From Psammoneis japonica (Eukaryota), in contig QPGO01000001.1 of assembly GCA_008632985.1 (NCBI GenBank), positions 364,600 through 428,599 on the forward strand: a stretch of 64,000 bases of DNA, in the 5' to 3' direction. Of this stretch, positions 22,734 through 64,000 are shown piece by piece. A program made the translations under genes and the position numbers. How positions within the stretch are numbered: the stretch's first letter is position 1; each line of letters starts with the position of its first letter. The notes under the pieces are model-generated. The model was not told the origin of the DNA. It saw only the letters and a list, made by a program, of their open reading frames with translations, and made no database searches.

Positions 22734-23169
22734 CTAGCTACAAATAAAAGTACAATAGCCATCCTTTTTTTAGGCCTCTTTTTGTTAGGACATTAGACTT
22801 CAGCTCTTCTACAAAGAACCACAGAGACCCCGTTGTTCGATCCAATTACTCTCCCTTTACAGGTGCTTTTGGAATCTCTATCAATGCCCTACCCACTCAC
22901 ACAGTCCAGTGAAGCATCATATCTTACATTTTATTTTGCCAACCCACCTACCTTCTCGCTGATGACAATGAAAGTATTGCGTTGCCATTCCCGATTTAAA
23001 GTTCAGGTTGAACTTTGGCGTTTTTGTCTCCAAAACGCAGAGTGGCTTCCAGTCGTCCGACCCATTGCGTTGGAACATGCCTTTTTTTGCTGGACCGGTT
23101 TTTGGAGAAGACCAGCGGATGTGTTGAAATGCCTACGAGGAAGCAGACACTCCCATTAAAATTGAAAAT

Positions 23170-34959: not shown

Positions 34960-40100
<5,141 letters not shown>

Positions 40101-43494: not shown

Positions 43495-46100
43495 TAGAGA
43501 TGGTTAGCAGCGCTCTGCAGAAATTCCTTTTGTTGAAATTTTCCGCAGCCGGCCGGCGCGCGATGATGCGAAAATTTATGTTGCAGCCACGTGTTAGCAA
43601 GCGTGGCAGCGTCAACGCCGCTGCAATTTTCCAGCTGAAAAAGACAAATCTCCAGTACGACGACCACGTACAAAAATCGTGTAGATCGCTCCTCCGACCT
43701 TCGATGCGGGATGCGGCATGAAGCACAACAAACAACACGGACGTGTTGCTGCACGTGTCGTGCCAATACAGTTTTGGATATACTCCATTGCATAAGGTAC
43801 AAACCTGCAATATGATGTATTCTTGTATGCTTGATTGAATGCTGTGAAAGTGTTGTTGTGTCCTGCCATGTTCTTGTCATTCTCATCCCTTTTGCTTGGG
43901 TGTTATTTTGCAGCAAATAGCGTGATGCCGAATGAATTCGTTTTTGCGTTTGTTGGTGATATTTGCAGTGTAGATTCATTAAGCGGAATTAGGGCTTTCT
44001 AGTGACATTACTTTTGTTTTCATACCTTGAGTAGATCCAGATCCGCGGCTACCTGCAACCCCCCACTTGCGACCTTGCGCCCAAATCCCAATGGGTTTTG
44101 CTCAAACAGGCGTTGCTTTAGAACAACTTGGAATTATGACACAATCAATGGCAATAACATCCTCTAGAGATCAAGAGCTTTCTAATGGTGTTAGTTTTGT
44201 TTTCATGCCTTGAGTAGATCCAGATCTGAGGATGCCCGTAACCCCCCACTTGCGACTGTGCGCCCAAATCCCAATGGGTTTTGCTCAAACAGGCGTTGCT
44301 TTAGAACAACTTGGAATTATGACACAATCAATGGCAATAACATCATCTACAGAACAAGAGCTTTTTAATGGTGTTAGTTTTGTTTTCATGCCTTGAATAG
44401 ATCCAGATCTGCGGCTGCCCGTAACCCCGCACATGCCCTTGCACGCCCAAATCCCACAATGCGTTTTGCTCAAGTAGGCGTTGCTTTAGAACAACTCAGA
44501 ATTATGACACAATCAACGGCAATAACATCATCTACAGAACGAAAGCTTTCTAATGGTGTTGTTTTTGTTTTCATACCTTGAGTAGATCCAGATCTGTGGC
44601 TACCCGCAACTGCTAGCTAGCTGGTTTCCGCGCCCAAATCACATGAGTGCATTTTGCTCAGGCAGGCGTTGCTTTAGTATAACTCGGATTTATGACACAA
44701 TCAATAGCAATAACATCATCTACAGATTGAGAGCTTTCTAATGGTGTTAGTTTTGTTTTCATACCTTGAGTAGATCCAGATCTGCGGCTACCCGTAACCC
44801 CGCACATGCCCTTGCGCGCCAAAATCCCAATGCGTTTTGCTCAAGTAGGCGTTGCTTTAGTGTGACTCGGATTTATGACACAATCAATAGCAATAACATC
44901 ATCTACAGAACGAAAGCTTTCTAATGGTGTTATTTTTGTTTTCATACCTTGAGTAGATCCAGATCTGTGGCTACCCGCAACTGCTAGCTAGCTGGTTTCC
45001 GCGCCCAAATCACATGAGTGCATTTTGCTCAGGCAGGCGTTGCTTTAGTATAACTCGGATTTATGACACAATCAATGGCAATAACATCATCTACAGATTG
45101 AGAGCTTTCTAATGGTGTTAGTTTTGTTTTCATACCTTGAGTAGATCCAGATCTGCGGCTACCCGCAACTGCTGTGGCTAGCTGGTTTCCGCGCCAAAAT
45201 CGTAGTGCGTTTTGCTCAGGTGGGCGTTGCTTTAGAATAACTCGGATTTATGACACAATCAATGGCAATAACATCATCTACAGAATGAAAGCTTTCTAAT
45301 GATGATACTTTTATTTCCATACATCTAGCAGATCCGTGTTGTCATCCAGACATCATGCCAACCCCGCATTTGCGCGCCCAAATCCCAGTGCGTTTTGCTC
45401 TAGTGTGCATTGCTTTAGAACTACTTGGAATTATGACACAATCAATAGCAATAAAATCATCTACAGAACGAGAGGTTTCTAATGATGTTAGTTTTGTTTT
45501 CATACATTGAGTAGATCTAGAACTGCGGCTCCTCGCAACTACTCTCTAGCCAGCTGGTTTCCGCACCAAAATCATGGTGCGTTTGCTCAAGTAGCCGTTG
45601 CTTTACAATGACTCGGAATTATGACACAATCAATGGCAATAACAACATCTACAGAATGAGAGCATTCTAAGGAGGTAACTTTTGTTTTCACACCTTGAGC
45701 ATGTCTGAATCAGCGTCGATGCATCCAGTCGTCGGCTGGATCTTGCGCCAAATTCTCCCAGGTATTCAATGAATTGGGCATAACTTCAGAAGCAACAGAA
45801 GTGGAAGTGGAGTTTGATGTATGAGCCATATGATGAGGTTCTGGAGCTTTGTTATCAGCAGTCAACGACTGCGGCGCAGGGAGATAGGATCGATGCGACT
45901 CCAAATTTTTTTTTGCATCGATGCGCTGCTGAAATTTCTGGTTGAAAAAAGCTGAGGCCGAATTTTTTGCAAAAGACCGATGAAATGCGATTATTTTAGC
46001 TTACAATAACAAACTGTCTTCAGAAAAATTTTTGCACCCGGCCGGCGATGCAAATTCTCATTTCTGCAGAGATTTTTACATCGCTTGCTAACCATCCCTG
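43495..46100. mobile_element. hAT-like non-autonomous element enclosing a tandem array
   Basis: Ends TAGAGATGGTTAGCA and (reverse complement) CAGGGATGGTTAGCA resemble Ac termini. Subterminal CTCTGCAGAAAT and GCCGGCCGG are inverted at both ends. No 8-bp TSD visible. Confidence 0.5.
43995..45700. repeat. Tandem array of ~9 units of 183-188 bp
   Basis: Anchor CATACCTTGAG (or variant) at 44021, 44204, 44387, 44572, 44760, 44943, 45131, 45318, 45501, 45689. Confidence 0.95.
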
Positions 46101-46359
46101 CTTTGTGTCGGGTCGGTTGTCGGTCGGTGGGTCGCTACATTTTTCAGATTACTTGTCCGTCTATTTTTTTAATTATTATCCAGCCAAACCAACTCCCGGA
46201 CAAGACATTTTTTTTTTGGCCGATGCGAATTTGGATGTCACCCAACGAGAATTCTGAAGAACAGAACGATGATTTTTGCGAGTTTCAGTGATCGACAGCG
46301 ATTTCTTCACGTAGACTCTAGCATGATTTGCACATAAAAAAACACACAAGTGATTCAAC

Positions 46360-47955
46360 ATGAGCGACAACATCTCGAGCGAGGTTGAGGGAGACTCAAA
46401 GGCTTCAGATGACTCTTCTTTGATCGATTCAGCTTCATTCAAGTCAGAAGAAGCTGACGAAGCGTCCTGGGAGGAAACGGACAGCAATCCTGTAGTCAAC
46501 GGCGACATTTCTGCTGTCGAAGAATCTTCTGGCGATGATGAAAACGTCATGCCTTTGCCGAGGATGATTCCAAGGCCCCCCAAGAGGCCTGCTGATGGTC
46601 AAGACGACCGCAGTCCACCCAACAAGCGTTCGAAGCAATCAGGGGGATCGAAACCTCGCAACCCCCTTGCGGAAAGGAGCTTCAACAAGATCCAGCGGAA
46701 GCTCGAGCGCGCTGAAGCGGCGCTCGTCACTCAGCAGGAAGAAGCTGATGCCAACGACCATGCCGCTGCCAAGGCCGCCAGAGCCAGCGAACAAAAGCTC
46801 TCCAAGGTTGTGGAGCAGCTGGAAGGAAAGAAGGAGATCATTGCAGATGCCAAGAAAGAAGTTGCACAGCTGAAGAAGGAGGTGGCAGCTTCGAAGAGGA
46901 AAGCCACCGCTCTGGAGCGGAGCTCAGCTACTTCTGAGCTTAAAGCAGCAAGCGTGGATGCCAAGTTTCAGGCTTTGAAGTCTGTCAAGACAGATGCACA
47001 GCGGAGTTTGAGCCAGCTCAGGAAGGATCTGTTGTCAGAAGAGAAGAAGAGTGCCAAGCTGACTGAAAAAGGAGAGGAATGCCGCCGCGCCATCGCTCAG
47101 AGAGATGCGGAGACATCTGAGTGTAAAGCCAAGGTGAGGTCGCTTCAAGCTTTGGAGCATGAGAACAGTCGCATGAAGCTACAGTTGGTGGCAGACAGAA
47201 CCGAGAAAAGGGAACATGAGCGAGCAATGGCTCAATTTAAGTTGGAAGAGATGAAGCATGCGTCCATCAAGCGGCAGGAGGAAATGAAGATGAAGCTGGA
47301 GAAAGAAGCCGTCGTGCTTGAAGGAAAAAATTTTCTCCTGGCAAACAAGTCGAGACTCAAGCAAGAGGACAAAGAAAGAGAGAGCAAAAGGAAGGACAAG
47401 GAGCGCAAGGACAGGCTAGAATCTGCAAACGCTAGAATCGCCGTTGCCAGTGGAGTGAGTGGTCTGGGTTTTGCCAACCAAGGCATTTTGCAGTCGGCAA
47501 GTGCACGCAAGTGTCCTGAAACATCTCATCTGTTTGCATTGATCTGATGCTTTTATTGTTGGTCATGCCAGGCACTCCTTGATCGCCAGCGGCAACAGCT
47601 GAACGAGGTTCCGCCGGGAGCGTCTTTCGGCGCTCCGACTTTTCAGAATGCAGCGGCGCCTGCTCAGGCTGCTGCTGGACCTCCTGCGCCTGCTCAGGCT
47701 GCTGCCGGACCTCCTGCGCCTGCTCAGGCTGCTGCTGGACCTCCTTTGCTTCTTCCTTGTGGCTGGAAGGAAGCCAAGGATCCAGCAACAGGGAAAAGCC
47801 ATTGCTTCAACCAGTTGTTGGGGAAGACAACGTGGGATCGTCCGTTGCCGCCGCCGCCGCCTCTTCCGCCGCCGCCGTCGCCTCCGCAGGTTCCTCCTCC
47901 CCCACCCCCTCCAGATCCTTCTCTTAACTCAAAGACAACCTCCAAAAAAGGGTGA
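46360..47955 (+). CDS. Transposon cargo gene: acidic N-terminus, long coiled coil, APAQAAAGPP x3, WW domain, polyproline
   Basis: ORF 46360 splices in phase 0 over 47497-47571 (GCAAGT...CCAG) into LPCGWKEAKDPATGKSHCFNQLLGKTTWDRP. Confidence 0.7.
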
Positions 47956-48283
47956 TTCACTTTCAACAGCGATTTAGCATGAAATGCGTTCTGTCATCGG
48001 CCGCGTTGCTTCTAGGAATGCCATCAGCAATGTGCAATTTTAGGAATCCATTGTGCATGACTGCTTTGTTATGCTGTAATGTTGTCATTGCGACATGTCC
48101 AGACAGTGCTGCAGGATTTGCATTTGCTCTATCTCTAGTGCTGTTGCAATGACTCTAGCGTGTGTTCACCGAAAATTGTCGTTCGAAGCATTAGATCCAT
48201 CGTCGTTTCCTTGTTCACGACACGTTCTTGACAACACAATTGCAACATGCCCAGACAGCAGTGCCACTGTAATTGCATTTGCT

Positions 48284-49567
48284 CTAGTGGCTAGCGCCAT
48301 TATAATTACTGTCTACCTGGCATCCACAGAAAATCATCGTTTGAAGCATGAGATCCACCGTCATTTCATCAAGAATCTGCCGAACGAAGCACATGATGGC
48401 ATCCTGATGAGGACGTGGCAAAACAAGGCTAAAGCCTTTCAAACGCTGGACCAATGTTTGGAACATAAGCTCAATGGGGTTTAACTCTGGTGAGCATCTT
48501 GGAAGATACACCACCAACACATTCATGGGATTTCCGTCGGGACCCATCGTGTTCCACAGCAAATCTTGAAGCATGTCGGCATCCCCGGCCTTGTGGATGG
48601 TGCAATTGTCCAAGATTAACACATCAAAGCGATTGAACCATCCAGATGCCAACACGTGCTCCATAAATGCAACAAACGCTGCGCTTGTCCCATTGTCCTC
48701 CCCGACTGTGTGCGTGATGGGAGCTTTTGTTGCGTCAACCCCCATGCACGCGAGAAGATTATAACGCTTCCGAAAGTCCCCGTCAACCACGACATTGTCA
48801 CATGTTCCACTAACAGGGTTAACACGGGCCTTCCTTGAGAAAAAATCTCCCCCTTCAAGATGCTTTTCGTCGGCAAACTTGAATCGCAAGGGATTGAGTT
48901 GCGACACGAACTGCACGAAGTCACAGCAGTGCGCAATGTTTTCTGGTCTGAATTTGTCAAGTGGAACATTGCTGGTTGCTTTGAATTTTCCTTTGAAGGC
49001 AAACCTTGAAGCAAACCATTCTGAGATGAATGATGCAGACACAATGGTGCCTGTGGCTGCGAACAGCTCTTGTACATGGCTCTCGTCAGTTCTTGTTGGA
49101 TCTACGAAACGAAGCCAAAGAAGAAAGCTTTCCTCCTCTGGTGTCAAACAAACACTTCCAACACCTTGACACCACTGTTGTCGACTTCTCAATTCATTAG
49201 GGTGCATCACCATGCCCTCGATGTCCACTTCATTCTTTATTTTGTCGGCGAAATCCCAGCCAACCTTGCAAGCTCTTGCAAGCGCAGCGGTGTCGGGGAC
49301 TTCTCCAAGCACAGTTTTTAGCTCTTCATGCACCCTTGCAACCTCTGACTTCTCCAGGCATGGGCATGACTTTCCGGGAGCATAGATTCCACCATTGGAA
49401 TTGATTTCAAACCTTTCAGTCATGCTGACAATCCTGGGAAAACTCGGTTTCAGCACCGCTCTTGAAAACCACCTCCCGCTTTTCACACGCTCCACCTTGT
49501 CGAGCAGGATTTCAAAATCAAACAGCATGTTAAAAGAAGCACTCTTTAGAGCACATGTCTTGGCCAA
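48284..49567 (-). CDS. IS630/Tc1-like DDE transposase (likely start ATG at 49423), partly mutated
   Basis: FADEKH...LILDNCTIH...YLPRCSPELNPIELMF, the DDE_3 signature. Confidence 0.9.
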   Translation of the reverse strand: MAKTCALKSASFNMLFDFEILLDKVERVKSGRWFSRAVLKPSFPRIVSMTERFEINSNGGIYAPGKSCPCLEKSEVARVHEELKTVLGEVPDTAALARACKVGWDFADKIKNEVDIEGMVMHPNELRSRQQWCQGVGSVCLTPEEESFLLWLRFVDPTRTDESHVQELFAATGTIVSASFISEWFASRFAFKGKFKATSNVPLDKFRPENIAHCCDFVQFVSQLNPLRFKFADEKHLEGGDFFSRKARVNPVSGTCDNVVVDGDFRKRYNLLACMGVDATKAPITHTVGEDNGTSAAFVAFMEHVLASGWFNRFDVLILDNCTIHKAGDADMLQDLLWNTMGPDGNPMNVLVVYLPRCSPELNPIELMFQTLVQRLKGFSLVLPRPHQDAIMCFVRQILDEMTVDLMLQTMIFCGCQVDSNYNGASH

Positions 49568-49859
49568 AACATCGGTGGGATGGTTGTTGTCTCACCGCAC
49601 GCTTGCCGGCCATGGTGCAAAGAAAACTTTGACAGGCGAGGAGTTCAAGCACAGGATGCATGCCGAAACCCTACGTGCATGATTTGCTCCTCTGACGCTT
49701 CTTCGAAAAAAAGCAGCGCGTGCATCCAACGAGAAGCCGTGACTCGCATCCAAGATTGTTTGACCCCACGCAGAATTGCACGCATCCGGGAGTTGGTTTG
49801 GCTGGACAATGGGGGACCTCCCCGAAAAATTGAAATGTTTCAATCCGATCCACGTGCTG

Positions 49860-50596
49860 CAAGTAAAAAACCGGTCTGTCCTCCACTTTTTGGTGTCTGT
49901 GTAAAAGTCGATTTTGTTTCCAAAATCGATCGGTTTTTCACTGTGCAATGCTTCTCATGTCTTCTGGCATTGTCAATTGACATGCTCTCATGCCTGCATT
50001 TGCCAGGTTCACGGTTCTGAACGCCATTGCTGCTGTCGCAAGAAGGGCCTTTTTTCGCTCCAAGAGGACAGACCGGTCGGCAGTGGAATTCTGCGTGGCG
50101 ATGTACCGAGAAATTTACACAGTTTTTTTTTTGCATCCGACGTCAATCGCTTGGCCATTGTTTCTCGCAACGGCAGCATGGCAAGTCCACAATGTAGACT
50201 CTTGTCGAATGACATGGGCCCACAAGCTGTCCTTCATTGTTGTTTTGCCTTGTTACTCGCATTTAGTGTGCCGGCATTTGTCACGCATTAGAATTGGACA
50301 ATTTAAAAAACACACATCAACGAGGATAATTAATGATGTAAAATCTGTGTAAATTCTCAAACCGTGGATTTTTTTTAGAAAATGGCGATGTGCCGTCTTT
50401 GGCCCCCAATTGTGCCATGATGCAACCTTCTGTCATCCCGCTGTTGTTGCAAGGATCTCCATTGACCTTCTGGCCGATGCCAGCAGATGGGGTTTGCGTG
50501 TCGAACAACGGGAAGCCACTCTTAGAGTGGTTTTACACAGTTTGCTGTTGCAAGAGGACAGACCGGTCGGAAGAGGACAGACCGGTTTTTTACTTG
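49860..50596. mobile_element. Tc1/mariner-type MITE, perfect 24-bp TIRs
   Basis: CAAGTAAAAAACCGGTCTGTCCTC and its reverse complement at 50573-50596. Flanks TG (49858-9) and TA (50597-8). Confidence 0.85.
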
Positions 50597-50598
50597 TA

Positions 50599-51799
50599 CA
50601 AATTGCTGAACACTTGTCACTCTTTGCACGCAAAGCGCGTTCGATCGCTCTGAAGAGGAAATTTTCCATTCGTTGTTCGTTTGTACCAGGCTGCGTAGAA
50701 TTCTACAGAAACTCCGACGTTTCAGCCGCGCTTCTCGCAAAACAACACGCGACAATGCGGGGAACACCGTCGGCAGTTTGCGACAACTTTCCCTCTCTAA
50801 CAAAAGAATGGAAATGACAGTGTTTGTTCATGGGAATTATTGACACCTTTAGCACAATGTTGATCGCAAGGAGTTGCAGGATGCAGGATGCCACTGTGTG
50901 AGAACAGCACTGCAAAACAAGACGACAATGTTTGGCGTGGCAAACACAACTGTGCCGAAACTCAAACGCCTGTCAATGACAAGCATTCTATTCAATCATT
51001 CAACAATGCTGCCTTCATTCCTAGATCTGTCACCTGCAAAGCTAAATTGAAATTTCTGCTGTCTTCTTCGCGTTGTGCCATTGAGAGCCGACAGCGAGTC
51101 ACTTGCTCTGCCAATGCAGAGAATGTTTTTGATGTTTGCACTGCATGCAATGCATTCAATGTCTCCATCAGTGACATGCAACTCTTCCTTCCAGCATGTC
51201 TGTCACGCACACTTTTGCTCAATGGACTGCGTTGCCCGGTTCAAGATCCCACTCATGAGAGAGACGAGATGAGCGCTCCATTTCTCTCTTGCACGAGCCA
51301 TTTGTGGCCCTCTCATCACCTCGAATGTCCACACTGCAACACCAAATGTTCAACATTCGAATGACATTCACCAGCTTCGGTTGATGAAAGATCAGTTGAG
51401 CCTCAATGCCACTGAACAAAAGCAAACACCACGCGACATGCCAGCTGGGATGTCAAAATGGCGCAGACAGAGAACAAATGTGAGTGAAAGCACCAATGGA
51501 AACAATGCAAGCAACAAAGCTCTCTTTCATTGCCATTGAGAGCGTGCTGAAACACGGGAGAGTTGTGAAAATCGGCAGAATCGATGGCAATGGGCACTGC
51601 CATTGTCGGATGCCATGCATCCTCGTGCTTCACCGCGTGTTGTTGGTGGTGGTCGGAGGGAGGAGTCGGAAAGCAGCAAGACTTTGCGCTGTGCTTTTCT
51701 ACGTGGCCTGGTGCAAGCAAGCCAACGAAAGGAAATTTTCCTCTTCAGGGCGATCGAAGGCGCTTTACGCGCGAAAAGTGACAAGTGTTCAGCAATTTG
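50599..51799. mobile_element. Tc1/mariner-type non-autonomous element, ~69-bp TIRs
   Basis: CAAATTGCTGAACACTTGTCACT...GAAGAGGAAA inverted at 51731-51799. Flanks TA (50597-8) and CA (51800-1). Confidence 0.85.
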
Positions 51800-52355
51800 C
51801 AGTGGATTCACACACGGAAAAACACACCATGACCAACCATCAGCCATCAGATGGAGTGAAGTAACCTCTTGAGTGTTGGTGTGGCATGTCACAGTGGCGC
51901 ACAAGATGGTGTGCAATGCTGCTGCAAAGAATGATGAATGGAAAAACAAAGAAAATGCGAAAACACGTTCCCCCCTAAAAAGACCGCACACCGACACGGG
52001 ACAATTGTGAGAAGCCGAGGGCTCCGCACTCGAGAGACTTGAGAATGATTCGTTTGCAACGTTTTCTTGCTGGAAACAAAGATTGTTTGGCAAGAGAACA
52101 GCACAGACTGAATCTTCATCCAGTCGAGCGAATGCTCAGTCGATGGAGGAACTGCGCGCGGAATCGAAAATGCTTGTTGCGAGTGTTGGCACACCGCAGC
52201 ATCAAAAGAGCCCATGTGTTGCGAGGACAGGAGCTCATCCCATTGGCTCTTTATGCAGATTTTACAGAACATTGTTCACAAGCTGCAAATGTTCTTTAGC
52301 CTGGGCCTTGTTGGCTTTGCATGGCTGCTGACAGATTGTCTCGATTTGTCAGGAA

Positions 52356-53548
52356 CTTAGTTTGGTTTCACCCATTTGGGGATTCCCCAAAATGGCAAGG
52401 GCAAGGGGGAATTGCCTTGCCCTTTTGGGCAATTCCCGGGAAATGAGGGCAATTTGGCGGGAAGGAACGACTGAAAGGGGTCAGGGGAAGGAACGACTGA
52501 AAGGGGTCAGGGGAAGGAACAAAAAATGAGTGTGGCGCGGCAATTCCCGGTGGATGTTGGTTGGGCGGGTGTGCTTTTTGTCCCATTGTGCCACTTGCTG
52601 CGCAGCGCTGGGCGACAACCATGATGGATGCATCGGCACATCAACACAAAGTGGCCCCTTGTGGTAGAGTGAGGGAGCAGCACACTTCACCATTGGATCA
52701 TGCACATCGACATTGCTCACATGCGGCTCCAATTTTGCCTCTGACTTTGCTCTAGAGCCCTTGTGGTTTGCATTTGTGACCACACGACACAAGACGGAAA
52801 AAATGACACACTGTGTTCTGCACACAAGATGGGTCAAAGGGAAGAATGAACATTGTCAATCAATCCTCCATGTTTTTTGTAGTCGTGTGTGGTTCTAATT
52901 TTGCCCCAGTCTTCACTCTAGATGCCTCATGGCTTGCATTTGTGACTTCACGACAAAAGAGTGTTTTTGACAGTTCGCTTCATTCACACATGAGACACGT
53001 CAATTGGAAGAACTGGGGTGACTGTTCAATCCACCACAACATTGTCACTGGCTGTGCATGGTTCCACTTTTGCCTTGGCCATTGCTGTGCACCTCATGGC
53101 TTGCATTTGTGACTGCACGACAAAAGAACAAATGACGACTGACGATCAATTGCACCAGCATTCTGCACATGAGCCAAAATGTTTCATCTTGTGTTTTGTG
53201 CTGTAGATCCCATTCAGTCCACATTGTTGAATGCATTGAACGGTGCCATGATTGATCGACAAAAGCCATCACAAATGGGACGCGAACGCGCCATGGTGTG
53301 TTGCACATCATTTTTGTTTCGCTCGGTTGGTCGACTTGTCATCCCTGCACGTAGAAGGCACAGAAATGTACGAGAGGGGAAGCACGGGGAATTCCCAATG
53401 TATGATTTTTTATCAATGTATGAAGATTGCATGCAGCGAGCATCATTCGTCGCGATTCCCCGGGAAATCATGCTTCCCGTGGAAAATCACGGTGAAAGGT
53501 GGCAATCCCGGGGAATTTTGGGGAATCCCGCGGCAAAACCAAACTGAG
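52356..53548. mobile_element. Non-autonomous DNA transposon with 8-bp TSD (hAT-like by TSD length)
   Basis: GTCAGGAA at 52348-52355 and 53549-53556. Ends CTTAGTTTGGTTT and (reverse complement) CTCAGTTTGGTTT, with subterminal GGGATTCCCCAAAAT. Confidence 0.8.
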
Positions 53549-54904
53549 GTCAGGAAATGTGCTGCAGATTCTACTGAGACATTCAGTTTAACAGAAGTTG
53601 CCATTGATCTCTTCTTGTCTCCTGTGTCCTCTTTTCCACTGTGAGCCAGCCCATCCAGCCATCTACAACGGGGTTCCTGGTCTTTTCAGACAACTCAAGA
53701 TGCTCAGGAAGACTCTTTGCTTAGACTTGCAACCAATCCCTTCATCTCCAGCTGGTTGATGGCGGCTTCCTCATCTTGGCAATCGCAATCAATGCAATGT
53801 CATGCGGCGCCTTTCTTGCTTTGCATGTTGCAATTTGATGCTCACATCCAGAGAGCGGAGGTGGCCAATCTGGATCAGGAACAACACCAAACTTGCCGAA
53901 CTCCCACGAGGAACATGCAGCAGACGCTGACGTGCCGTTTTATGTGACCAAAGCAACAAAGCCAACCGACTCATCCGCTGGCACTCGATTGATTGTTTGG
54001 CCAGTTTTTCAAGTTTGGAAGAAAGTGACTTTTGAAGATTCACAACAGTGCACTCTGAAACATGTTTGCCAAGTGCACCATGTCCGTCAAAAACTCAAAG
54101 CAGGCGATTGTCAGGCACGTCACTGACCACCCACCTCCGAAGCAGGGTCGTCATCATCTTCCGTGTGCCCACGAGTGCGAAAGGGTGATGCAACAAAAGC
54201 TTGATGTCCTGATTAATTTGAGATGATGTCCTTCCACCGTTTCACCCAATCAGCACTGATGTTCCATAAAATGAACATTTTTCTTCAAATCCTGGGCTCT
54301 GTCATGGGCAAAGGCTGCGTTGACACTTGGCGCAGTTGTTGCTCCCACAACATGAACGAAATCTGCTTTGGACACATTGTGACGCGGCCGACAAATCAAG
54401 AAATTTGAGCAAACAACCACAAACAACCACCAGGTCTTTTCTTGAGCACCACAAAGTTGCAAGTGACGGACATCAGCCGACCCTGGGGCAACCTGAACGC
54501 ATCAAACACATGAGTTGCCTCGAGCTCGATGCAGCGCGGCATTTGAGAAGCTTTTTCTTTTTTGTTGTCGTGAACAATCCCATTTGATTTCTTGAGGCTC
54601 ACAAACACCCAACCAACGCGGTTGAGGAAGTCGGAAGGCCCGAGGGTTGCTGCAACGCCGGTGTTCATCTTTGTCATGCCATGGTGTTTTTCGCCCGTTG
54701 CTCTCCACGCGGTCCACTCGGAAATTCGCTGGCTTGGATTGAAACATTTCAATTTTTCAGAGAGGTCCCCTAATTAAAAAAATCGACGGACAAGTGATCT
54801 GAAAAATGTAGCGATGCGCATTCTCGCTCGCTCACTCGCTCGCTCGCTCCTCGCTCGGCGACCGGCGACTTCCGCAGATACTGTTTTTCTTTACATGTAC
54901 CACC

Positions 54905-57357: not shown

Positions 57358-58189
57358 TACGGTATAGTGAGAGTCCAAACAATTCTCCAAAGCGTCATAT
57401 GTTCTAGTGAGCTGCCCAGTCTTCTTTTCCGTTGGGACCAAACTTTTGCACAGTGGTAGACCTGTACCTATGATGTACCATGCATTTTAGTAAAGATGTA
57501 TCAAATCATAGAATACTGTAGTTTATTCCTCTCACTCTGACGAAAATCATTACATTAAGTCCGCGCATGCAGGCTAAAAAAGACGGTCTGCTCTCCTGTC
57601 CTACAGTAAAACTTTTTTCGAATGAAAATAAAACTTGAAAAGATTACCCTACAGTCGGGTAAACAAGTGTAATAAGAGTGAAAAATACATTGTAACAGCG
57701 CACTACAGGTTAGGAAGTGAGCATCTCGGAACTCCCTCCGAGACGCCTCATGTAACGTTCCATCGCTAATCCCACAGTTCATCAACCTAACAACAGGCAA
57801 ATGAGAGGGCAACGAGGACACACTTTGATTGCTCATTTATGATGCAGGTGCACACTTAAGGTCCCACACACAATGAATCACTTGCCTGTTGCTGATGCTG
57901 CAAATGGAGTTGAGCCAGCTCCTCAGGTCAACCTGCCTCATGGTCTTGAGTGGGGGGCAATCAGAACATGACCTGAGGTCAGAAGCCATTGGTGGAATGG
58001 TGCTCCAGGTTTGGACACTTGAACATGGGTCATCATGTCCAAGGCCTCCTTTGTGTCAAGCCATTTCTCTGACCAAAGCTCAAGCATGTGGCAAAATGCA
58101 ACCACCCAAGGTGCAAAGCATGCAAGTGTGCCAAAGGATGTTGATGTTCTGTCCTTTGCACTGCCAAACACAACATGGTCCCAGAGCAT

Positions 58190-58430
58190 GGTGGAGATCT
58201 GAAAGCTGATCACTTGCATCTTGGTCGGGCCATGAGCATGGACCACATCAAGTCCATCCCATCTCCCAGGTTGCACCTGCAACTCATGTTGCAAGGCCTC
58301 ATCCAAACAATTCAAGGGAAGCTGTGTCTTTGTTGATCATGCTTCTGGAAATGTCCACGTTGAACAACAACTTGGTTTTTCTGCTGTGAAGATGGTGCAA
58401 GCAAAGCAAGTGTTTGAAAAGCATGCAATG
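58190..58430 (+). mobile_element. Copia (CoDi-like) integrase fragment
   Basis: KQFKGSCVFVDHASGNVHVEQQLGFSAVKMVQAKQVFEKHA resembles the Copia integrase core. Confidence 0.7.
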
Positions 58431-58479
58431 CCCTTCTTTTGAACGTGTGTTCTCATGAGAAGGCGGCAAAATGTCCTTG

Positions 58480-58736
58480 TGTCTTGTGCCAGTCTCACCA
58501 GTTGATGATGCACATGCACTCACATTCATGGATGAGGTCATTGTTTTTGTTCCAACCATTCTTGACAGCTTGATCTTTGAGGGTCTGGAGGAGCTCAAAA
58601 ACAGTTTCTCCTGTGTGCATGAGAATCCATTTTCCAAGATTGTCTCCACTGCTTTGTTGCAAATGGACCGGTGTGCCTTTTGCACAAAGTTAAGAGTGCT
58701 TTTGATGACCTGAGCAGGTGTCAGAGAAAATGCCAT
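58480..58736 (-). mobile_element. Copia (CoDi-like) gag N-terminal fragment
   Basis: FSLTPAQVIKSTLNFVQKAHRSICNKA resembles the start of diatom Copia gag (from recollection). Confidence 0.45.
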
Positions 58737-60224
58737 GATGGCTGGTCATCTTTTCTGTCTCACTTGACATCGTTGATTTTGCAGCAATGACCACAATGAA
58801 TCATTGCAGCAAGGCCTTGAATGTGTCAGAGAAGAGGTTTGGCCTTAGCAGCAAGGGTGGAACAGAAGAAGAAGAAGAAGAAGTGCAAGAGGACTTGGAA
58901 CAAGTCCAACATGAACAAGCACATGATCGAATGTTGCTTTTGCCGCCACCAATGCTTCTCATGCAGATGAAGAGAATCACGAAGATGCTGATGAAATCAA
59001 CAAGGGATGGTCTGTCGTGGTTGTGTGCTGGCAAGCAGCGACAACACTGGCGTTGGCATTGTGTCTGACATGGGGACAGCACAATTGGATCCCATGCCTC
59101 CTCCACCACCTGCGCAGGACCATGTCACACTTCTTGCAGATGCCCATGCAGCCGAAAGGAATGACAGCATGGACGATGTGTGAGAACAAATGGCTGCACT
59201 CGAGCAAGAGAGCATGCATCTTCGAAATGAAGTTCCCCTGGCACAATCTGAGCTTGCTCAAGCAAGTGCAAGAAATGAGGGCTGCCGTTGCAAATGCCTT
59301 TTTGTTCTTGGGGTTGCAGCAGGGAGTCACCTCAACATTTGAACAATGCGTTGACGGCCCGTAAATGGATTGTTAAATGCATTGCATGATGCACAATTTA
59401 AATTTATGCCCAAATTTAAATTTGTGAGTTTTTGCACAAATTTGATTTCACGCACAATTCCACATGAACATGCCAGTGTAGAATCACACAAAATTTGCAT
59501 GGTGCACAAAGCTCAATGAATCTTGAAATCAACATTCCCTCAAATGGCATTGAGTTCCTTGTTGACAAAGGAATCTTGGCTCATGCACAAATTTGAGTGC
59601 TTCGAGAAACAAGAATCATGTGATTGGGAGAAGCAAATTTACGCACAAATTTGGATGCACAAATTTGCTGAAATTTGTGTGCAAATTTGGAAATTCAGGA
59701 AACGCCAATGTGTTGAAAATCACAAATGATTTCAACGGATTTCCGTTGAAAGTTAAAACATTGAAAGTTAATCTGTTGAAAGTCATGACTTTCAAAGGAT
59801 TTCTGTTGAAAGTTAAAAATGTCAAAGCTGGTGCAACCTGGAAATCTGTTGAAAGATGTGGAAACACTGACGTCATCCACACGTCCCAAAGCGGCAAATG
59901 CTGACTGCTTCAGACACCCACCACAATCAGGTGTCAAAGAGGGCAACAGTTTCAGCAAATTTTTTGTTTTTTAGCTTTGAGTCACGAGTGCAAAAAAAGT
60001 GCTCAGCACCGCTCATTTTTCATCAATGACATCGACGAACATGTTGTTGTTTGTTTTTTACACTGCAGCACCCACCTCCTCCACCTCCTCAACACCATCC
60101 AAATCGTCTTCACTCTCATCATTGTGTGTGTCAGTGTCCATGACAGCACAATTTACAGCAAGTGGCACAGACGAATCATCTGCATTTTCCAGAATTGATG
60201 TGCTCAACAAGATGTTGTGCAACC

Positions 60225-62600
60225 TCATTTTTGCAGCAAGTGTCTTCCACTTGTCCGGGTCCTGTGGCTTTGGATTGAGAAAGCTGGCTCCTTGATGAAG
60301 TTTCTGGGTGTCCTTGACTCGGGTTCCTTGAGGTGCGTTTTCACGGTCGGTGAACACAATGTTCCTGAATTCATTTCGCAACTGCTCAAACTGTTCCTTC
60401 TTTTCAGTTGCACAACCAAAAAATGTCTGGATGCCATGAATGTTTTCTTTCCAAGGACATCAGGATGCTTGGATGCTTCAAGGGTGTTCCAGTTGGTCGT
60501 GGGTTTGTAGTTCCCCATCTCTTGATGCATTGCCTTGAAGCAATCAAATGCTGTGGGCAATCTCACTCCGTGAAGCTGTCCATGCATCACATGCAATGCT
60601 TCACTGCCTTCCCTGCTGCATCCCAAATGCCTTTGAAATGAAATTTCTGGGCAAACTGGTGAGTTGCTGCAGCCACGTCTACTGTGCTTGCGAATCTTGC
60701 AATTCTCAAAAAGTTTTGGTTGCACTTGCATTGGTCCATGCCACTGTTCTCATCAAATTGACTCCGTTGTGTTTGAATTGATGCTTGCAGCATTGGACGA
60801 TCTAAAGAAGGCATGCATTGTGGAAGCCTGGGTGGTTTCTCCAAAAAAGTGCCAGACATCGCATTCGTAGATTCGCCACTTCTTGTTGACTCCATCATGC
60901 TTGACTGTGATTGTCCTTGGAGAATGTAAAACAACAAACATGCACAGGATGGCTTGGGCATCCACAGAGCAATTGTCGGTCACACAGGCTCAAAGATTGC
61001 ACATCGCAGAGAAGTCAGTGAAGATCAGCAACTCTTCGCGGGTGAAGGCATGTGTGTCAATGCGTCACATGAGATTGATCAATTCTGTCTCACAATGGTG
61101 TTTCCTGCATTTCTCCAGCTGCATCAGCAGTCGCTCTACGACCGTTTTCACTGGGAGCTCTACATCCATCAGTTCTGTCTGTGTGTTCTGCTCCCCTTTT
61201 GCATTGGTCCCAGCTCTCGGTGCCAGCAGCCATTCCTTTACAGGGACTTTAACGTCGCATTTGGTGAGTGCTTTACATTTTTGCAGCTTCATCTTTTTTG
61301 ACTCCACAACTCCGACAGTTCCCATGTGTGCATTTCCAAGGGATTTGTTTTGGTGGACAGCCTCCAACCTTGGTGCAGAGCATTGGTTCCTCCTTTGACG
61401 GGCAGCATGATGCTTTGACGAGTTGTCTGTAGTTTGTTTTTAGCAATGAAGATGTCATCAGCACCAGACCCATCATCTTCATCTGCTCTCATTTGAACGT
61501 GTAAGTCGCAAGTGCAATTTTCCATTCTCTTTTCAACATGTTTGCTGATCAACGATTTGTTCAATGATTTCATGCTCTCCTCCAGTCCAATCTTTATCAA
61601 ATCAATGCAAGAATGTTCAGACGGGTCCTGCACACAAGGGCAAGCACAGCCACGGAATCGCTCTTTGCCTGTTGAGCTGTCATGGGTGTCTTGAAACGTC
61701 TGATGCACCTCCAATTTTTGGAATGCATCAAATCGGCTCTCAAGAGTCGCGTCATTCCATGCTTGAGCTGGGTGAGTGATGACTTTTCTCGTTGTTGGAT
61801 CCCCCAGTTTGTGAACCCTGCCAGCACTCTGCATGAACATGAGATCCTTCTTCTGAATGGCAAAATTCAATTGTGCAAAGATGAGCTTAATCACAAACAC
61901 AGTCACTCGTTTCTTCCTTGGTCGAATTTTGAAAACATCCTCACTCTCATCTTTCAAGCTGTGGCAAGCAGCAGTCATGACTGCATCAACCGCATTGCGC
62001 ACTTCAGTGGGAACTGCATTTGGCTCTTGTGCTTCTCTACAAAGTCATGCACATCGTCCACAATTTCTTTGTCCATCATGTCTGCATCCTGGGTGGCAGT
62101 CACACAAGCCAATTTACTTGCACACTCCATGCGAGATTTAAGCAAGCCCAGCAGTTAACTCGCCAAGGCTTTGTTCTTGTTTGCCAGCACTGTCAGCAGC
62201 TGTTCCAGCTCATTCACGGGCTTTCTCAAAGTGTTGCCGGCAATGCTGTCTGCTCTGGCGACTTGCTCATCACTCAACTTTTCCCATTCAACACGCTTCT
62301 TCCGTTGACTGTCACGAGAGTGCTGAAATTTGTAAAGGCATTTCTTCTTAATGCCTTGCGACATGGGTGAGAGCAGATCCTCATCTCCATCACCACTGGA
62401 AGCATTTCTCTTTAGCAGGATGTGCAGATGGATTGGTTTGTTGCTCTTTTCCTCCTTTGCCCTTCTTTTTCTTCTCCCTTTCTTTCCTTTTTTTCATTGC
62501 TTTGTCGAGTGCATTCTTGAGCTTTTTCTTGTCCTTCTCACTCACACTGCAATGGACTGCAGGAGAGACTGCTTCACTGAGTCGAAAAATCTGAGAAGAA
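60225..62600 (-). mobile_element. Decayed Sola2-like DDD transposase
   Basis: Cys cluster, then IFTDFSAM..., GMDQCKCNQNF..., HQFAQKFHFKGIWDAAGKAVK (compare DF...D..QYK...HGKG..D..G..VK). Stops and frameshifts present. Confidence 0.5.
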
Positions 62601-62749
62601 TTGACTTCTTCATTGCTTTTTCGGTCGAAAGAGCATGACAACAACATTGGCGCACGAGTGTTTTGATGGTGTTTTTGCTCGGGTTCATCCTCTTGCTCTT
62701 CCTTGTCTTGATTGAAGACCAGTTCCACATCTTCTTCTTCTTCATCATC

Positions 62750-64000
62750 AGCATGTTCATGCCGAGACAGTCGTCTAGAGTGCCTTGAGCATCAATGTCA
62801 AAATTCGCGTCTCCAATGTCTTGCATTGCTTTGTCAACAGCAGACTTGTCAAGGGATGCAAAGATGCCATCGTCCACATGATGAACATAAAATGATGTTG
62901 TCGCGAAAATGCAGACACTCATCAACCGCTGAATGAATGAAGCCAATTTGCAACAATCCATCACGCAAGTGCTCCTGCCATGCTCTCCCTGCCTGCTTCT
63001 GACCACATGAATTCTTTGGCAATTTCAGAACATGAGTCTTGCCATTGCCACATTTTGTTTCAATTCCAGCAGGTGACTCCACATGCACATCACATTCGAC
63101 ATCAGCGTGCGGGTGTGCCAGAACGAAGTGAACCTGTCGGGTGTGCCATTTGTTGAGCATGGACATGATCAGCAGAAGCCGGACAGCAAACCAGAAGACA
63201 ACCGAGGAGCAAGTCTGAAAGCAGTTGACCGCATGCTCTTGTTTTCCACCGTGCACGTTGAGTCTGGACTTCCACTCATGGACCATTTGTGTTTTGACAT
63301 CTCTTTTCCTTTTCACAGACCACACAGAAGGGAGAATGTCAGCATCAGCAGGTGCATCCTCTCTTGGAATAAGTGCCCAATGTCTCTTTTCAATGTGGTC
63401 ATTTGCTTCCTTGACACAAGCTTTGATGAACTCGTCTCAGTCCGGTTCACGCATGACCTGGTCAAAATGCCATTGCATCGGGGTCCGAGCTTGCAAAAAA
63501 AGAGACAGGTGAGTCCATGTGTCCTGCAACTTGTAATCATCTTCATGCATGGCGTCACAACAAGCCTCTGCCTCAGCATCATAGGATGCAACACCTTGAG
63601 CCCGTTGTGGTTGGCTCTCGCGCATCGTCCTTTTGGTCGGGCGTCATTGTCGTCGGACCTGCTGGTGCTGGGCTGACCCATGGCATGCTGTGGCTCAGGT
63701 GCAGCATCGGGATCATTGGAGGCGTGTGCAGGACCTCATCATCCGGCTGAGCATTGTCAAATGAGTCATCAGCAGTCAATGTGTCACCAGGATGCAGCAG
63801 CTGAGGCGGAATTTCAGGACCCGGTTCAGTTGGTTCCGTTGCGGCAGGAGCAGGGTCCCTCACATCATCTGACCTCAAAAAGATGTTGAGTGTCCTTCCT
63901 GACTTCAGTTGTTTGAAACCCGTTGTGCCTTGCCATTGTGAGAATGTTGAAGGATTTCCAGCAGATGGATGAACGGTCTCAAAGAAGTTGTCAAATTGTG
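62750..64000 (-). mobile_element. Copia reverse transcriptase remnant
   Basis: WSVKRKR..WKSRLNVHGGKQ..QVHFVLAHP..KNSCGQKQAGRAW..HVDDGIF..DCLG. Confidence 0.9.

Follow-up and report, generated by a model that had tools for sequence, protein, structure and literature searches.

The window analysed here, a 64-kb stretch of Psammoneis japonica contig QPGO01000001.1, is nuclear diatom DNA in which the dinucleotide TA is very unevenly distributed. Over the whole window rho is 0.26 for TA, 1.51 for TG/CA and 1.04 for TC/GA. The 1-kb windows are bimodal, 27 of 64 lying at or below a rho TA of 0.10 and 21 above 0.43, and 33 of 64 satisfy the cut-offs of the Bigelowiella natans preprint (Mettrop et al., bioRxiv 10.64898/2026.01.13.699255). 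Rho TA is 0.45-0.75 in the genes, in the DNA flanking them and in a satellite (0.47-0.59 in six host ORFs), like that of related diatoms, whose contigs L001-L011 range from 0.52 to 0.86; about 32 kb of blocks between the genes lie at 0.03-0.10. All composition results refer to this single 64-kb window. The spared and depleted features are these:

25899..27428, plus strand: host sugar-transporter gene, a negative control (rho TA 0.50; related-diatom orthologs 0.57 and 0.54)
43994..45699: non-coding satellite of 183 bp, 9.2 copies, a negative control (rho TA 0.74)
4900..13550: TA-free block (rho TA 0.06, CG 0.59)
16600..21550: TA-free block beginning no more than about 15 bp from the stop codon of RSH (rho TA 0.07, CG 0.44)
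19569..20374: weak TIR element inside the preceding block (CTAG against CCAG)
23050..25550: TA-free block (rho TA 0.04, CG 0.25)
28000..33000: TA- and CG-free block (rho TA 0.05, CG 0.10)
35000..40050: TA- and CG-free block (rho TA 0.03, CG 0.14)
57900..64000: TA-free block with a copia-type retrotransposon remnant, continuing past the window (rho TA 0.10, CG 0.42)
62852..63436, minus strand: Ty1/copia reverse-transcriptase (RT) fragment (Pfam RVT_2, E 3.9e-18)

No recognisable TE protein was found in five of the six TA-free blocks (87 ORFs scanned, one reaching the Pfam cut-off); in block 4900..13550, none of the 28 scanned ORFs of at least 110 aa reached it. The blocks have no repeats in common within the window, so that we infer a TE origin for these five by analogy with the copia block and the outer element O described below, given how long they are and the raised depth of those that could be measured. 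In the copia block depth is up 2- to 13-fold. Within block 16600..21550, the inverted repeat 19232-19300 versus 20261-20329 is 71% identical by letters and 96% identical in purine/pyrimidine coding, and the 23-bp arms of the weak element differ at eight positions, six elsewhere, one at CG and one at TA (the TA/CA difference quoted earlier). A similar 1-kb block is found in another diatom, on the short-read metagenome contig L001.

A nest of DNA transposons shows TA depletion intermediate between normal DNA and the TA-free blocks:

46138..54808: outer TIR element O, non-autonomous and host to the nested A, B, C and D
46176..49809: element A, a Tc1/mariner-type DNA transposon in the left arm of O (TSD TA at 46174-5, TG at 49810-1)
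48284..49591, minus strand: eroded DDE_3 transposase frame of A (Pfam DDE_3, E 3.1e-12)
49860..50596: element B, short and non-autonomous (TSD TG at 49858-9, TA at 50597-8; perfect 24-bp TIRs)
50599..51799: element C, non-autonomous (TSD TA at 50597-8, common to B, and CA at 51800-1)
52356..53548: element D, hAT-like and non-autonomous (perfect 8-bp TSD GTCAGGAA at 52348-55 and 53549-56)

The TA dinucleotides flanking O (46136-7 and 54809-10) border normal DNA and are both intact. Once A is removed, the arms of O (46132-46175 plus 49812-49852 against 54730-54814) agree at 93%, with GATTAC opposite GATCAC in the TIRs; pairing continues for four bases beyond the TA, and the termini might therefore be 46132 and 54814 instead. 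The TA-depleted zone stops at the O termini: TA per kb is 29.7 to the left of O, 11.9 within it and 35.3 to its right. Three of the five TSD dinucleotides within O now read TG or CA, and B's 24-bp arms are still identical. The 25-bp TIRs of A show a single difference (TTAT against TTGT). The TIRs of C, about 105 bp long and 83-90% alike, have CGCAAA against CGTAAA among some 16 mismatches of every class, and those of D begin CTTAG and CTCAG. Both B and D occur in high copy: contig depths add up to 862-2120 in the two bins that include B, against about 55 in unique DNA, and depth is 1760-2110 in D, where 15 reads or contigs diverge directly past 53548.

The earlier note on this DNA had read such pairs as differing specifically at TA in Tc1/mariner elements, through a polarised change made in the chromosome after insertion. 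All the TSD and TIR pairs that it listed were found in place, and A, with its DDE_3 domain (Tc1/mariner/IS630 type), belongs to the family named; D does not, because its perfect 8-bp TSD marks it as hAT-like. The word "specifically" was too strong, 25 of the 32 mismatches in six TIR pairs falling outside TA (seven at TA positions, six at CG, 19 elsewhere). An excess at TA is nevertheless present (7/22 TA positions against 19/215 of the rest, Fisher p=0.0047), and among the 11 alignment sites where one or both arms have TA, four are TA/TA, six TA against TG/CA and one other. The proposed tabulation of mismatch classes, carried out on the 13 repeat pairs of the window, put 20 of 163 mismatches and 20 of 95 transitions in the TA class, close to the context-free expectation that we estimated ourselves for the window's composition. 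The raw mismatch list is thus weak alone, and the case is carried by polarised tests.

All the polarised tests that were run agree that TA became TG or CA, and did so after insertion. For A, an uninterrupted paralog of the insertion site in the right arm of O carries TA and not TG/CA. The transposase of A keeps Tyr at two of nine family-conserved Tyr columns and has Cys or His at six, the codons at the lost positions being TGC (three), CAT (two), CAC and TTC. At other conserved columns the family residue is kept in 103 of 125 (p=3e-4 against 2/9). Three control homologs keep Tyr at 5/8, 4/7 and 3/6, and none of the 23 aligned has more than one Cys or His there. After one Tyr-position codon the frame of A continues through CAG, the point at which P0121, P0122 and the majority of the remaining aligned homologs stop.

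The copia RT fragment keeps none of eight family-conserved Tyr, which are replaced by His (three), Cys (three), Phe and Ser (codons CAT, TGC, TGC, CAC, CAT, TGT, TTT, TCA), against 100 of 136 other conserved columns kept (p=4.7e-5). Among its homologs, 38 of 41 retain 5-8 Tyr with at most one Cys or His, and in three eroded RT copies Cys or His was picked independently per column. The same Tyr erosion is seen in two public copia proteins from other records. In codon terms, TAY became TGY or CAY at six of nine columns in the transposase copy and at six of eight in the RT. The footprint is thus shared by a fragment of an LTR retrotransposon, so that the mode of transposition makes no difference to the process.

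Contigs of other copies, probably from the source sample, were compared with the window at 1,734 differences, of which 40 were listed. Seventeen of the listed rows have a majority of at least three contigs against the window; by our reading of the read table, in which strictly polarised rows are few, they comprise four TA losses, four CG losses, three other transitions, six transversions and no TA gain. Among all 40 listed, the window has TG/CA against TA elsewhere in 12 and the reverse in none. Double mismatches of TG against CA, which fit the same direction, are frequent as well (about 12 in the 13 repeat pairs). The polarised tests place the change in chromosomal DNA, as the earlier note had argued against transcript editing and reverse-transcription errors; RNA editing is excluded by that argument, and a deaminase acting on DNA remains compatible. 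The observation in that note is thus confirmed in part, and its interpretation is supported.

Within the window the depletion is uniform across the 16 NTAN contexts (0.17-0.37), and TG/(TG+CA) is 0.49-0.54 in each depleted block. GC content is 0.46-0.49 in depleted and 0.46-0.50 in normal blocks. The loss follows age: rho TA is 0.32 in B with its identical arms, 0.22 in A (96%), 0.11-0.15 in C, D and O's own parts and 0.03-0.10 in the old blocks.

We consider it probable that TE-derived chromosomal DNA undergoes regionally confined, post-insertion transitions from TpA to TpG or CpA that spare host genes and the satellite. Such a process would amount to A to G on either strand, with no other flanking preference and no strand bias, and would run beside ordinary CpG to TpG/CpA decay while being separable from it. 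Host genes, their short flanks and the satellite would be spared, and the loss would progress with insertion age down to 3-10% of the expected TA, so that the mismatches in TSDs and TIRs would be early footprints in a still-young nest of DNA transposons. Adenine deamination is the leading guess for the chemistry. As proposed for B. natans, an enzyme with ADAT2/TadA-type activity might deaminate T-preceded adenine in the DNA of silenced chromatin, inosine then being read as G; we hold this tentatively, at somewhat short of an even chance. Against such an enzyme, TadA-like and fungal editing enzymes are not known to show the uniform 3' context found here. Targeting would follow silencing or TE status rather than mere lack of transcription, although a target consisting of all untranscribed DNA would suit the data nearly as well as one consisting of TEs.

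Both strands are hit to the same extent, at a target that is no more than a palindromic dinucleotide and without flanking preference. This suits a duplex-level mark, like CpG methylation, better than a single-strand deaminase. TE DNA might then carry a symmetric TpA base modification, either thymine converted to 5-hydroxymethyluracil (5hmU) by a TET/JBP enzyme or N6-methyladenine (6mA), whose miscoding or misrepair yields T to C or A to G as 5mC does in CpG decay. CpG loss does co-occur in the TE blocks, and dinoflagellate 5hmU is described as enriched in TEs and silencing them (excerpts of PMC11572971). Against such a mark, TC is not depleted (rho TC/GA 1.04), and CG loss varies between blocks (0.10-0.59) at equal TA loss, so that the TA and CG marks would need independent deposition. 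To our knowledge no TpA mark of the 5hmU or 6mA kind is known in diatoms, and we know of nothing establishing either base as mutagenic enough. On balance this explanation seems unlikely.

What is chiefly new is the extent of the effect, which is regional and not genome-wide. The earlier note seems to assume a bias from TA to TG/CA throughout the genome, with genes held back by selection, and this would account for a window rho TA far under the 0.52-0.86 of related diatoms and for depleted DNA filling nearly all intergenic space. The sugar transporter has lost four of nine conserved Tyr, two of them to Cys, and genes may therefore not be fully spared. Yet at its codon positions 2-3 and 3-1 TA observed/expected is 0.46 and 0.53, against 0.29 and 0.50 in one related ortholog and 0.82 and 0.65 in another, and host genes are there as TA-rich as their orthologs. 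Non-coding DNA is also normal in the satellite and in the 438 bp separating it from O. With ancestry taken as the majority state, satellite TA sites are scarcely more variable than others (4/17 against 10/89, p=0.23), so TA is not hypermutable everywhere, a point that tells against our favoured reading too; the satellite's CG sites are strongly variable (8/12, p=7e-5). The distribution is bimodal and its edges are sharp, two of them falling on the termini of a transposon, and a genome-wide bias is accordingly improbable.

Ordinary divergence, read selectively and with TG/CA "TSDs" that are merely misplaced element ends, is strongly disfavoured. It can draw on the mismatches outside TA, on an unpolarised TA share near the context-free estimate and on the fact that the TA-duplicating status of B, C and O rests on the very dinucleotides in question. 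Against it stand the excess at TA positions (p=0.005) and both Tyr-column tests, in which the replacements are Cys and His. The end of B at 49860 is moreover backed by a contig of another copy, which departs exactly before that position and whose own flank ends in TA, and 32 kb at rho TA 0.03-0.10 is beyond chance.

An assembly or base-calling artefact, in which modified TE bases are misread (A as G, C as T), is just as hard to credit, even though a TE-confined change of CG and TA to TG/CA resembles miscalls at methylated sites. K-mer contigs from a public run of mean depth about 55, which need accurate reads and may come from the source data themselves, agree with the assembly in depleted DNA, differing at 0-2 sites over 480-770 bases (57998-58618, 60455-60933, 53531-54017 and 53994-54765). 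Miscalls at palindromic sites would probably conflict between strands and could hardly erase 95% of TA. Copies of one family differ mutually at TA/TG/CA sites, and both the metagenome block of L001 and the Tyr erosion of the two public copia proteins are foreign to this assembly. A selective disadvantage of TA outside genes (for example through cryptic TATA boxes, polyadenylation signals or flexible DNA steps) can appeal to the mild under-representation of TA in most genomes but is scarcely credible, since depletion peaks in dead TE copies, where function is least likely, is equal in all contexts, increases with insertion age and would require action on thousands of individual sites in junk DNA.

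Among known systems, CpG decay by cytosine methylation, which affects TEs in diatoms, likewise turns a palindromic dinucleotide into TG/CA in TE DNA, equally on both strands. It also acts in the window, to judge by block values of 0.10-0.59 for CG rho and by the loss of CG in TIRs, satellite and read evidence, but it cannot remove TA, and the two losses are uncoupled (TA 0.06 with CG 0.59 in 4900-13550, TA 0.05 with CG 0.10 in 28000-33000). Enterobacterial VSP repair depletes CTAG, converting TA to CA/TG through biased handling of T:G mispairs and not through damage. The same change is seen here, but VSP repair acts on one tetranucleotide genome-wide, whereas the window is affected in all NTAN contexts equally and in certain regions only.

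RIP of ascomycete fungi requires duplicated sequence and a sexual cycle, and changes C to T mainly at CpA, creating TpA. As in the diatom, the process (excerpts of PMC2621366 and PMC3318451) is DNA-level, transition-only and dinucleotide-specific, and inactivates integrated transposons, leaving aberrant blocks beside normal genes. Its TpA direction is opposite, the diatom window losing TpA and accumulating CpA/TpG; the tandem satellite is spared here; and RIP would lower GC, which in the depleted blocks equals that of normal ones. Dinoflagellates, which are SAR algae too, mark their TEs with a base modification that silences them, and according to earlier work quoted in PMC11572971 the thymines of TA and TC are the ones preferentially replaced; the excerpts of that source describe no mutational footprint, and TC is not depleted in the diatom.

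The closest known case comes from the chlorarachniophyte B. natans, where integrated viral and transposon DNA is hypermutated at TpA only. In the excerpts of the preprint compared here, mutation-accumulation lines show TpA-only A-to-G/T-to-C changes in integrated viral DNA, DDE and RT domains are over-represented in TpA-depleted clusters, and an ADAT2/TadA-type activity is proposed (Mettrop et al., bioRxiv 10.64898/2026.01.13.699255). In both algae TpA becomes TpG or CpA according to strand, in foreign or mobile DNA only and with the remaining genome normal, and the clusters, several kb long, are TpA-depleted and enriched in CpA and TpG. DDE-endonuclease and RT domains are among the depleted sequences, and both are eroded in the diatom window. 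B. natans is a rhizarian and the diatom a stramenopile; mutations were seen de novo there, whereas the diatom case is read from footprints. The hypermutable NCLDV (giant-virus) region of B. natans still has a rho TA of 0.45, against 0.03-0.10, close to saturation, in diatom blocks covering about half of the window. The diatom targets are DNA transposons, small non-autonomous elements and an LTR element, with no viral genes seen in the window, and strong CpG loss accompanies TA loss in some blocks. No report of TpA-confined hypermutation in a diatom was found in the literature. The window thus points to a targeted DNA-editing process previously reported from one other alga only.

Over the whole window the odds ratio of the dinucleotide TA (rho TA, observed against expected) is 0.26, with 1.51 for TG/CA and 0.63 for CG. 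This average conceals two populations, since the map of TA in 1-kb steps is bimodal. Normal stretches have rho TA of 0.45-0.75, a range in line with that of relatives: 0.57 and 0.54 in the coding sequences of orthologs from two diatoms, and 0.52-0.86 in eleven contigs. In six depleted blocks of 2.5-8.7 kb each, 32 kb in total, rho TA is 0.03-0.10 and that of TG/CA 1.5-2.0. The stretches are as follows.

1-4900: normal
4900-13550: depleted
13.6-16.6 kb: normal, RelA/SpoT homolog (RSH)
16600-21550: depleted
21.6-23.0 kb: normal
23050-25550: depleted
25.6-28.0 kb: normal, sugar transporter
28000-33000: depleted
33-35 kb: normal, EamA transporter
35000-40050: depleted
40.1-46.1 kb: normal, phosphofructokinase fragment, further ORFs, a 183-bp satellite (rho TA 0.74) and 438 bp of non-coding flank
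54.8-57.9 kb: normal, an ORF and a kinase
57900-64000: depleted

The edges of the blocks are sharp at the 100-bp scale, and one block begins about 15 bp past the RSH stop codon. TA is normal in the host genes, including their synonymous positions, in the satellite and in the flanks; across codon positions 2-3 and 3-1 of the sugar transporter it is no lower than in the orthologs. A nest of transposons, filling the gap at 46.1-54.8 kb, is intermediate (rho TA 0.19), and its depleted zone stops at the termini of the outer element: TA density is 11.9 per kb inside, compared with 29.7 in the left and 35.3 in the right flank.

The analysis drew on the 64-kb window and on public collections. The window is nuclear DNA of a eukaryote, and its long, single-exon genes include those for a galactosyltransferase, the RSH, the sugar transporter, the EamA transporter, the phosphofructokinase fragment and the protein kinase. 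The nearest named relatives of the sugar transporter are those of the raphid pennate diatoms Fistulifera, Amphora, Amphiprora, Cylindrotheca and Seminavis, and its best match is a metagenome protein of 83% identity; a metagenome scan for relatives yielded 16 loci, with protein identity of at most 58%, and did not recover the contig of the 83% relative (P0001). A dinoflagellate origin, which the TA deficit had at first suggested, was rejected: a search of the window for a 15-nt spliced-leader motif gave one match with two mismatches, against 0.54 expected, and the named relatives of the sugar transporter belong to pennate diatoms. Two pieces of the RSH region (15716-16075 against 22280-22604) have copies, 73-84% identical, in the TA-normal stretch at 21.6-23.0 kb, which may represent a partial gene duplicate. 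A perfect (GA)60 microsatellite (39521-39640) borders a TA-free block. In the sugar transporter (25899-27428), tyrosine is kept at five of nine columns conserved in 15 diatom homologs and two are now cysteine, while the 83% relative keeps seven of nine, with no cysteine or histidine, which hints that genes adjoining depleted blocks may not be wholly spared. A microbial-mat metagenome contig of another diatom (L001), whose sugar transporter is 58% identical to that of the window, contains a 1-kb stretch (about 7975-8990) where rho is 0.06 for TA and 0.25 for CG, flanked by normal DNA (0.4-0.67); no clear TIRs were seen.

The transposon nest consists of an outer element, O, and four elements inserted within it.

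O, 46138-54808: outer element with arms of about 80 bp, the left one interrupted by A; flanks TA/TA
A, 46176-49809: 25-bp TIRs; DDE_3 transposase frame on the minus strand (Pfam E 3.1e-12)
B, 49860-50596: small non-autonomous element with perfect 24-bp TIRs
C, 50599-51799: small non-autonomous element with TIRs of about 105 bp
D, 52356-53548: perfect 8-bp duplication at 52348-55 and 53549-56

The earlier note spoke of Tc1/mariner elements. A carries a Tc1/mariner/IS630-type DDE/D transposase (Pfam DDE_3, 47 bits against a cut-off of 28.6), and B, C and O encode none. D is excluded by its duplication of 8 bp instead of the 2-bp TA; a perfect 8-bp duplication is typical of hAT elements, and D is therefore assigned as hAT-like. 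The A transposase has 78 diatom and metagenome homologs, with no close paralog in the protein collection searched (best match 62% identical). Inside A, on the plus strand opposite the transposase, the stretch 46354-47955 has a 397-aa coiled-coil-like frame with zero tyrosine and a second frame with a WW domain (E 3.1e-6), with a stop between both; they may stem from a captured piece of a host gene or form a second gene of the element, and a single contig differs from them mainly at CpG-type sites. Within D lie direct repeats of 166 bp that resemble each other at about 68% (52722-52960 and 52888-53127) and a 26-bp tandem repeat (52459-52520). D also ranks with the most abundant sequences in the sample, at a depth of about 1800-2100 compared with 55.

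All of the target-site duplications and TIR pairs quoted in the earlier note are present in the sequence. The duplications are TA/TG in A, TG/TA in B and TA/CA in C, the TA at 50597-8 being common to B and C. Each of these three elements thus retains TA on one side and has TG or CA on the other, the mismatched side being the very feature to be explained. The TIRs differ as TTAT/TTGT in A, GATTAC/GATCAC in O, CGCAAA/CGTAAA in C, CTTAG/CTCAG in D and CTAG/CCAG in an element at 19.6-20.4 kb. It had been proposed that such differences fall specifically at TA. The enrichment is real, since in six TIR pairs 7 of 22 TA positions carry a mismatch, compared with 19 of 215 other positions (p=0.0047); exclusivity is not, as the 32 TIR mismatches of these pairs comprise 7 at TA, 6 at CG and 19 elsewhere. 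TA is found in both arms at only 4 of the 11 places that have it in at least one. Among all 13 repeat pairs in the window, TA against TG or CA makes up 20 of 163 mismatches, an unpolarised share that by our own estimate is about that expected for context-free transitions, TG and CA being so common here, and that proves little. More telling are the approximately 12 places with TG in one copy and CA in the other, which need two hits on one ancestral dinucleotide.

Four independent polarisations agree that the change runs from TA to TG or CA. The presumed TA-duplicating elements have seven distinct flanking dinucleotides. The two of O, bordering normal DNA, are intact; of the five that lie within O, three have become TG or CA, while the arms of B are unchanged. 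The right arm of O is an uninterrupted paralog of the A insertion site and reads TA there, and a contig of another B copy, which departs from the window exactly at 49860, has a flank of its own ending in TA. In two contigs, 49848 or 49853 is linked to 51811 across 23 or 11 other letters; these are O copies lacking B and C, with a junction too diverged for reading the target dinucleotide. Within the nest, TA decreases with arm divergence, from 0.32 in B and 0.22 in A to 0.11-0.15 in C, D and the parts belonging to O itself.

The coding remnants point the same way. When the A transposase frame was aligned with 23 of its 78 homologs, tyrosine was found retained at 2 of 9 family-conserved columns, against 103 of 125 other conserved columns (p=3e-4). 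The replacements are cysteine (three), histidine (three) and phenylalanine (one), with codons TGC, TGC, TGC, CAT, CAT, CAC and TTC. Every aligned homolog has at most one cysteine or histidine at these columns, and three control homologs retain tyrosine at 5/8, 4/7 and 3/6. CAG stands right after A's Tyr-position codon, where the homologs P0121 and P0122 and most others aligned terminate. A Ty1/copia reverse-transcriptase fragment at 62852-63436 (Pfam RVT_2, E 3.9e-18), compared with 41 of its 93 homologs, retains none of eight conserved tyrosines (histidine three times, cysteine three times, phenylalanine and serine), against 100 of 136 other columns (p=4.7e-5); 38 of the 41 homologs retain 5-8 with at most one cysteine or histidine. 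TGY or CAY thus replaces the conserved tyrosine codon at 6 of 9 columns in the transposase and 6 of 8 in the reverse transcriptase.

Erosion of tyrosine to cysteine or histidine is a simple detector, which singled out two further public copia polyproteins, P0199 (919 aa, NCBI) and P0208 (1481 aa, ENA), eroded like the window copy. They retain 0/8 and 1/8 of the conserved tyrosines, with 7 and 6 cysteines or histidines in their place, and tyrosine makes up 0.8% and 1.2% of the whole proteins, where five intact relatives have 3.1-3.7%. Whether a given column holds cysteine or histidine varies among the three eroded copies, as expected of independent decay.

Read evidence came from a single public sample, from which the assembly was probably made; its contigs were aligned to 45750-64000 at 80% likeness. 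Among the 40 differences listed (of 1,734), the window has TG or CA against TA in other copies in 12, with no case of the reverse, and TG or CA against CG in 15, with one reverse; rows 47114 and 47115 are a single CA-against-TG double. Restricting the listed differences to rows with at least three contigs and the majority of depth against the window left 17, which in our own tally comprise 4 losses of TA, 4 of CG, 3 further transitions and 6 transversions, with no gain among them. The claim that the change is polarised, followed insertion and took place in DNA is supported by the four agreeing polarisations. ADAR editing of transcripts, which the earlier note had argued against, is disfavoured, as the changes lie in genomic DNA, in flanking duplications outside the elements and in DNA transposons.

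The depletion of TA is alike in all sixteen NTAN contexts (0.17-0.37) and strand-symmetric, TG/(TG+CA) being 0.49-0.54; the depleted blocks offer no strand bias as a mechanistic clue. Loss of CG in the blocks is uncoupled from it. The rho of CG is 0.10 at 28000-33000 and 0.14 at 35000-40050 but 0.59 at 4900-13550, where TA loss is equal, so that the two losses reflect separate processes or ones acting at different times. The 183-bp satellite (43994-45699; 9.2 copies with a 371-bp higher-order period) has normal TA, whereas the high-copy elements B, C and D are depleted. Polarised by majority state, 4 of 17 satellite TA sites are variable, against 10 of 89 other sites (p=0.23), and variation at CG is strong, affecting 8 of 12 consensus CG positions. 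Differences between units are mostly transitions, identity being 76-97% in letters against 88-99% in purine/pyrimidine coding.

Since TAA and TAG are nearly erased in the old blocks, long spurious reading frames abound, 113 ORFs of at least 110 aa occurring in about 41 kb of depleted blocks and O. In this genome, the presence of an open frame does not indicate a gene. A Pfam scan covered 87 of these ORFs, the 26 inside O being left out; 86 had no match above the cut-off, and the single match above it is RVT_2, so that a transposon protein was recognisable in only one of the six old blocks. Six sub-threshold matches, including one to a deaminase family, were taken as chance; this last one (OTT_1508, E 0.008) lies in a spurious ORF, and no candidate in the window qualifies as an ADAT2-like DNA adenine deaminase. 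Within the window no repeats are common to the blocks, either in letters or in purine/pyrimidine coding, and self-comparison in the latter coding for repeats masked by transitions in the TA-free blocks returned known repeats only, with no new families.

These observations probably reflect a process acting on DNA and confined to transposon-derived or at least silent DNA, in which TpA, once integrated, is turned into TpG or CpA regardless of how the element transposes. Untranscribed DNA and transposon DNA are hard to separate within 64 kb. As for the chemistry, our leading guess, a tentative one, is that adenine preceded by T would be deaminated in the DNA of silenced chromatin, the resulting inosine being read as G. 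The main rival, which we consider rather improbable, is a symmetric base mark at TpA in transposon DNA, such as 5-hydroxymethyluracil or N6-methyladenine, that miscodes and gives rise to transitions as 5-methylcytosine does at CpG. A mark at the level of the duplex is favoured by the bare palindromic target, by the equal hits on both strands and by the lack of flanking preference. In dinoflagellates, 5-hydroxymethyluracil marks and silences transposable elements and is reported to favour TA and TC (PMC11572971); TC, however, is not depleted in the window.

Misreading of modified bases is an unlikely artefact. The sequencing run used as a check may itself be the source data of the assembly, but its k-mer contigs, at a depth of about 55, agree with the depleted blocks except at 0-2 positions in every 480-770 bases. 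A palindromic site would, moreover, yield conflicting miscalls on both strands, and the short-read metagenome contig L001 has a similar 1-kb block (rho TA 0.06). A genome-wide mutation bias would also have emptied synonymous sites and the satellite of TA, and both are normal; selection against TA would not be expected to be strongest in dead transposons; and chance is excluded by block size and by the tyrosine-column tests.

A broader reading, possible though doubtful, is that diatoms have a RIP-like defence system that senses silenced or newly integrated DNA and erases palindromic TpA by adenine deamination or by a heritable base mark. If this reading is true, transposons are driven to near-total loss of TA, together with loss of tyrosine codons and of TAA and TAG stops, and a second mutable dinucleotide mark stands beside CpG methylation, shaping half of the non-genic DNA of the species. 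Should the TpA-directed process hold genome-wide, it would show that DNA-editing genome defence is not restricted to fungi and animals, and it would bear on the control of diatom transposons beyond cytosine methylation. For annotation, dead transposase frames remain open and homology searches miss eroded elements. Diatoms are transformable and the footprint is easily scored, which makes them a tractable system for enzyme discovery.

In fungal RIP, C is changed to T at CpA, so that TpA rises and CpA and TpG fall in the affected repeats, and duplication of the sequence is needed. RIP is thus a functional analogue whose defining feature fails here, as it creates TpA and the process in the window destroys it; the affected blocks have TpA at 0.03-0.10 and TG/CA at 1.5-2.0. 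A literature search, with most subscription journals outside its coverage, turned up nothing on TpA depletion or hypermutation in diatoms. The window probably records a transposon-confined, TpA-erasing process in a diatom, of a kind that has been described once before.

That case is Bigelowiella natans. According to a preprint, two integrated viral regions in a subset of mutation-accumulation lines mutate about 1000-fold faster than the remaining genome, with changes that are nearly all A to G or T to C, every one of them at TpA; clusters elsewhere in that genome that are depleted in TpA and enriched in CpA and TpG are enriched in DDE-endonuclease and reverse-transcriptase domains, and an ADAT2-like deaminase was proposed (10.64898/2026.01.13.699255). 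The window likewise has changes from A to G and T to C at TpA, although CpG and other classes occur too, and likewise has depletion confined to mobile DNA, the standard genome being unaffected. The cut-offs of the preprint are passed by 33 of 64 1-kb windows, in runs of up to six, with a rho that is strand-symmetrised here and may differ slightly from that of the preprint. The two cases differ in host lineage, in the near-saturated blocks and share of DNA affected, in the targets (transposons, with no viral genes seen) and in the accompanying loss of CpG. The diatom footprint is far stronger than in this single described case, and if it extends genome-wide, TpA-directed hypermutation of mobile DNA would be known from a second organism, P. 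japonica, and for the first time from a diatom. Should the RIP-like reading be true, TpA editing, found in both the diatom and Bigelowiella, would be a defence of SAR algae that is either ancient or recurrent.
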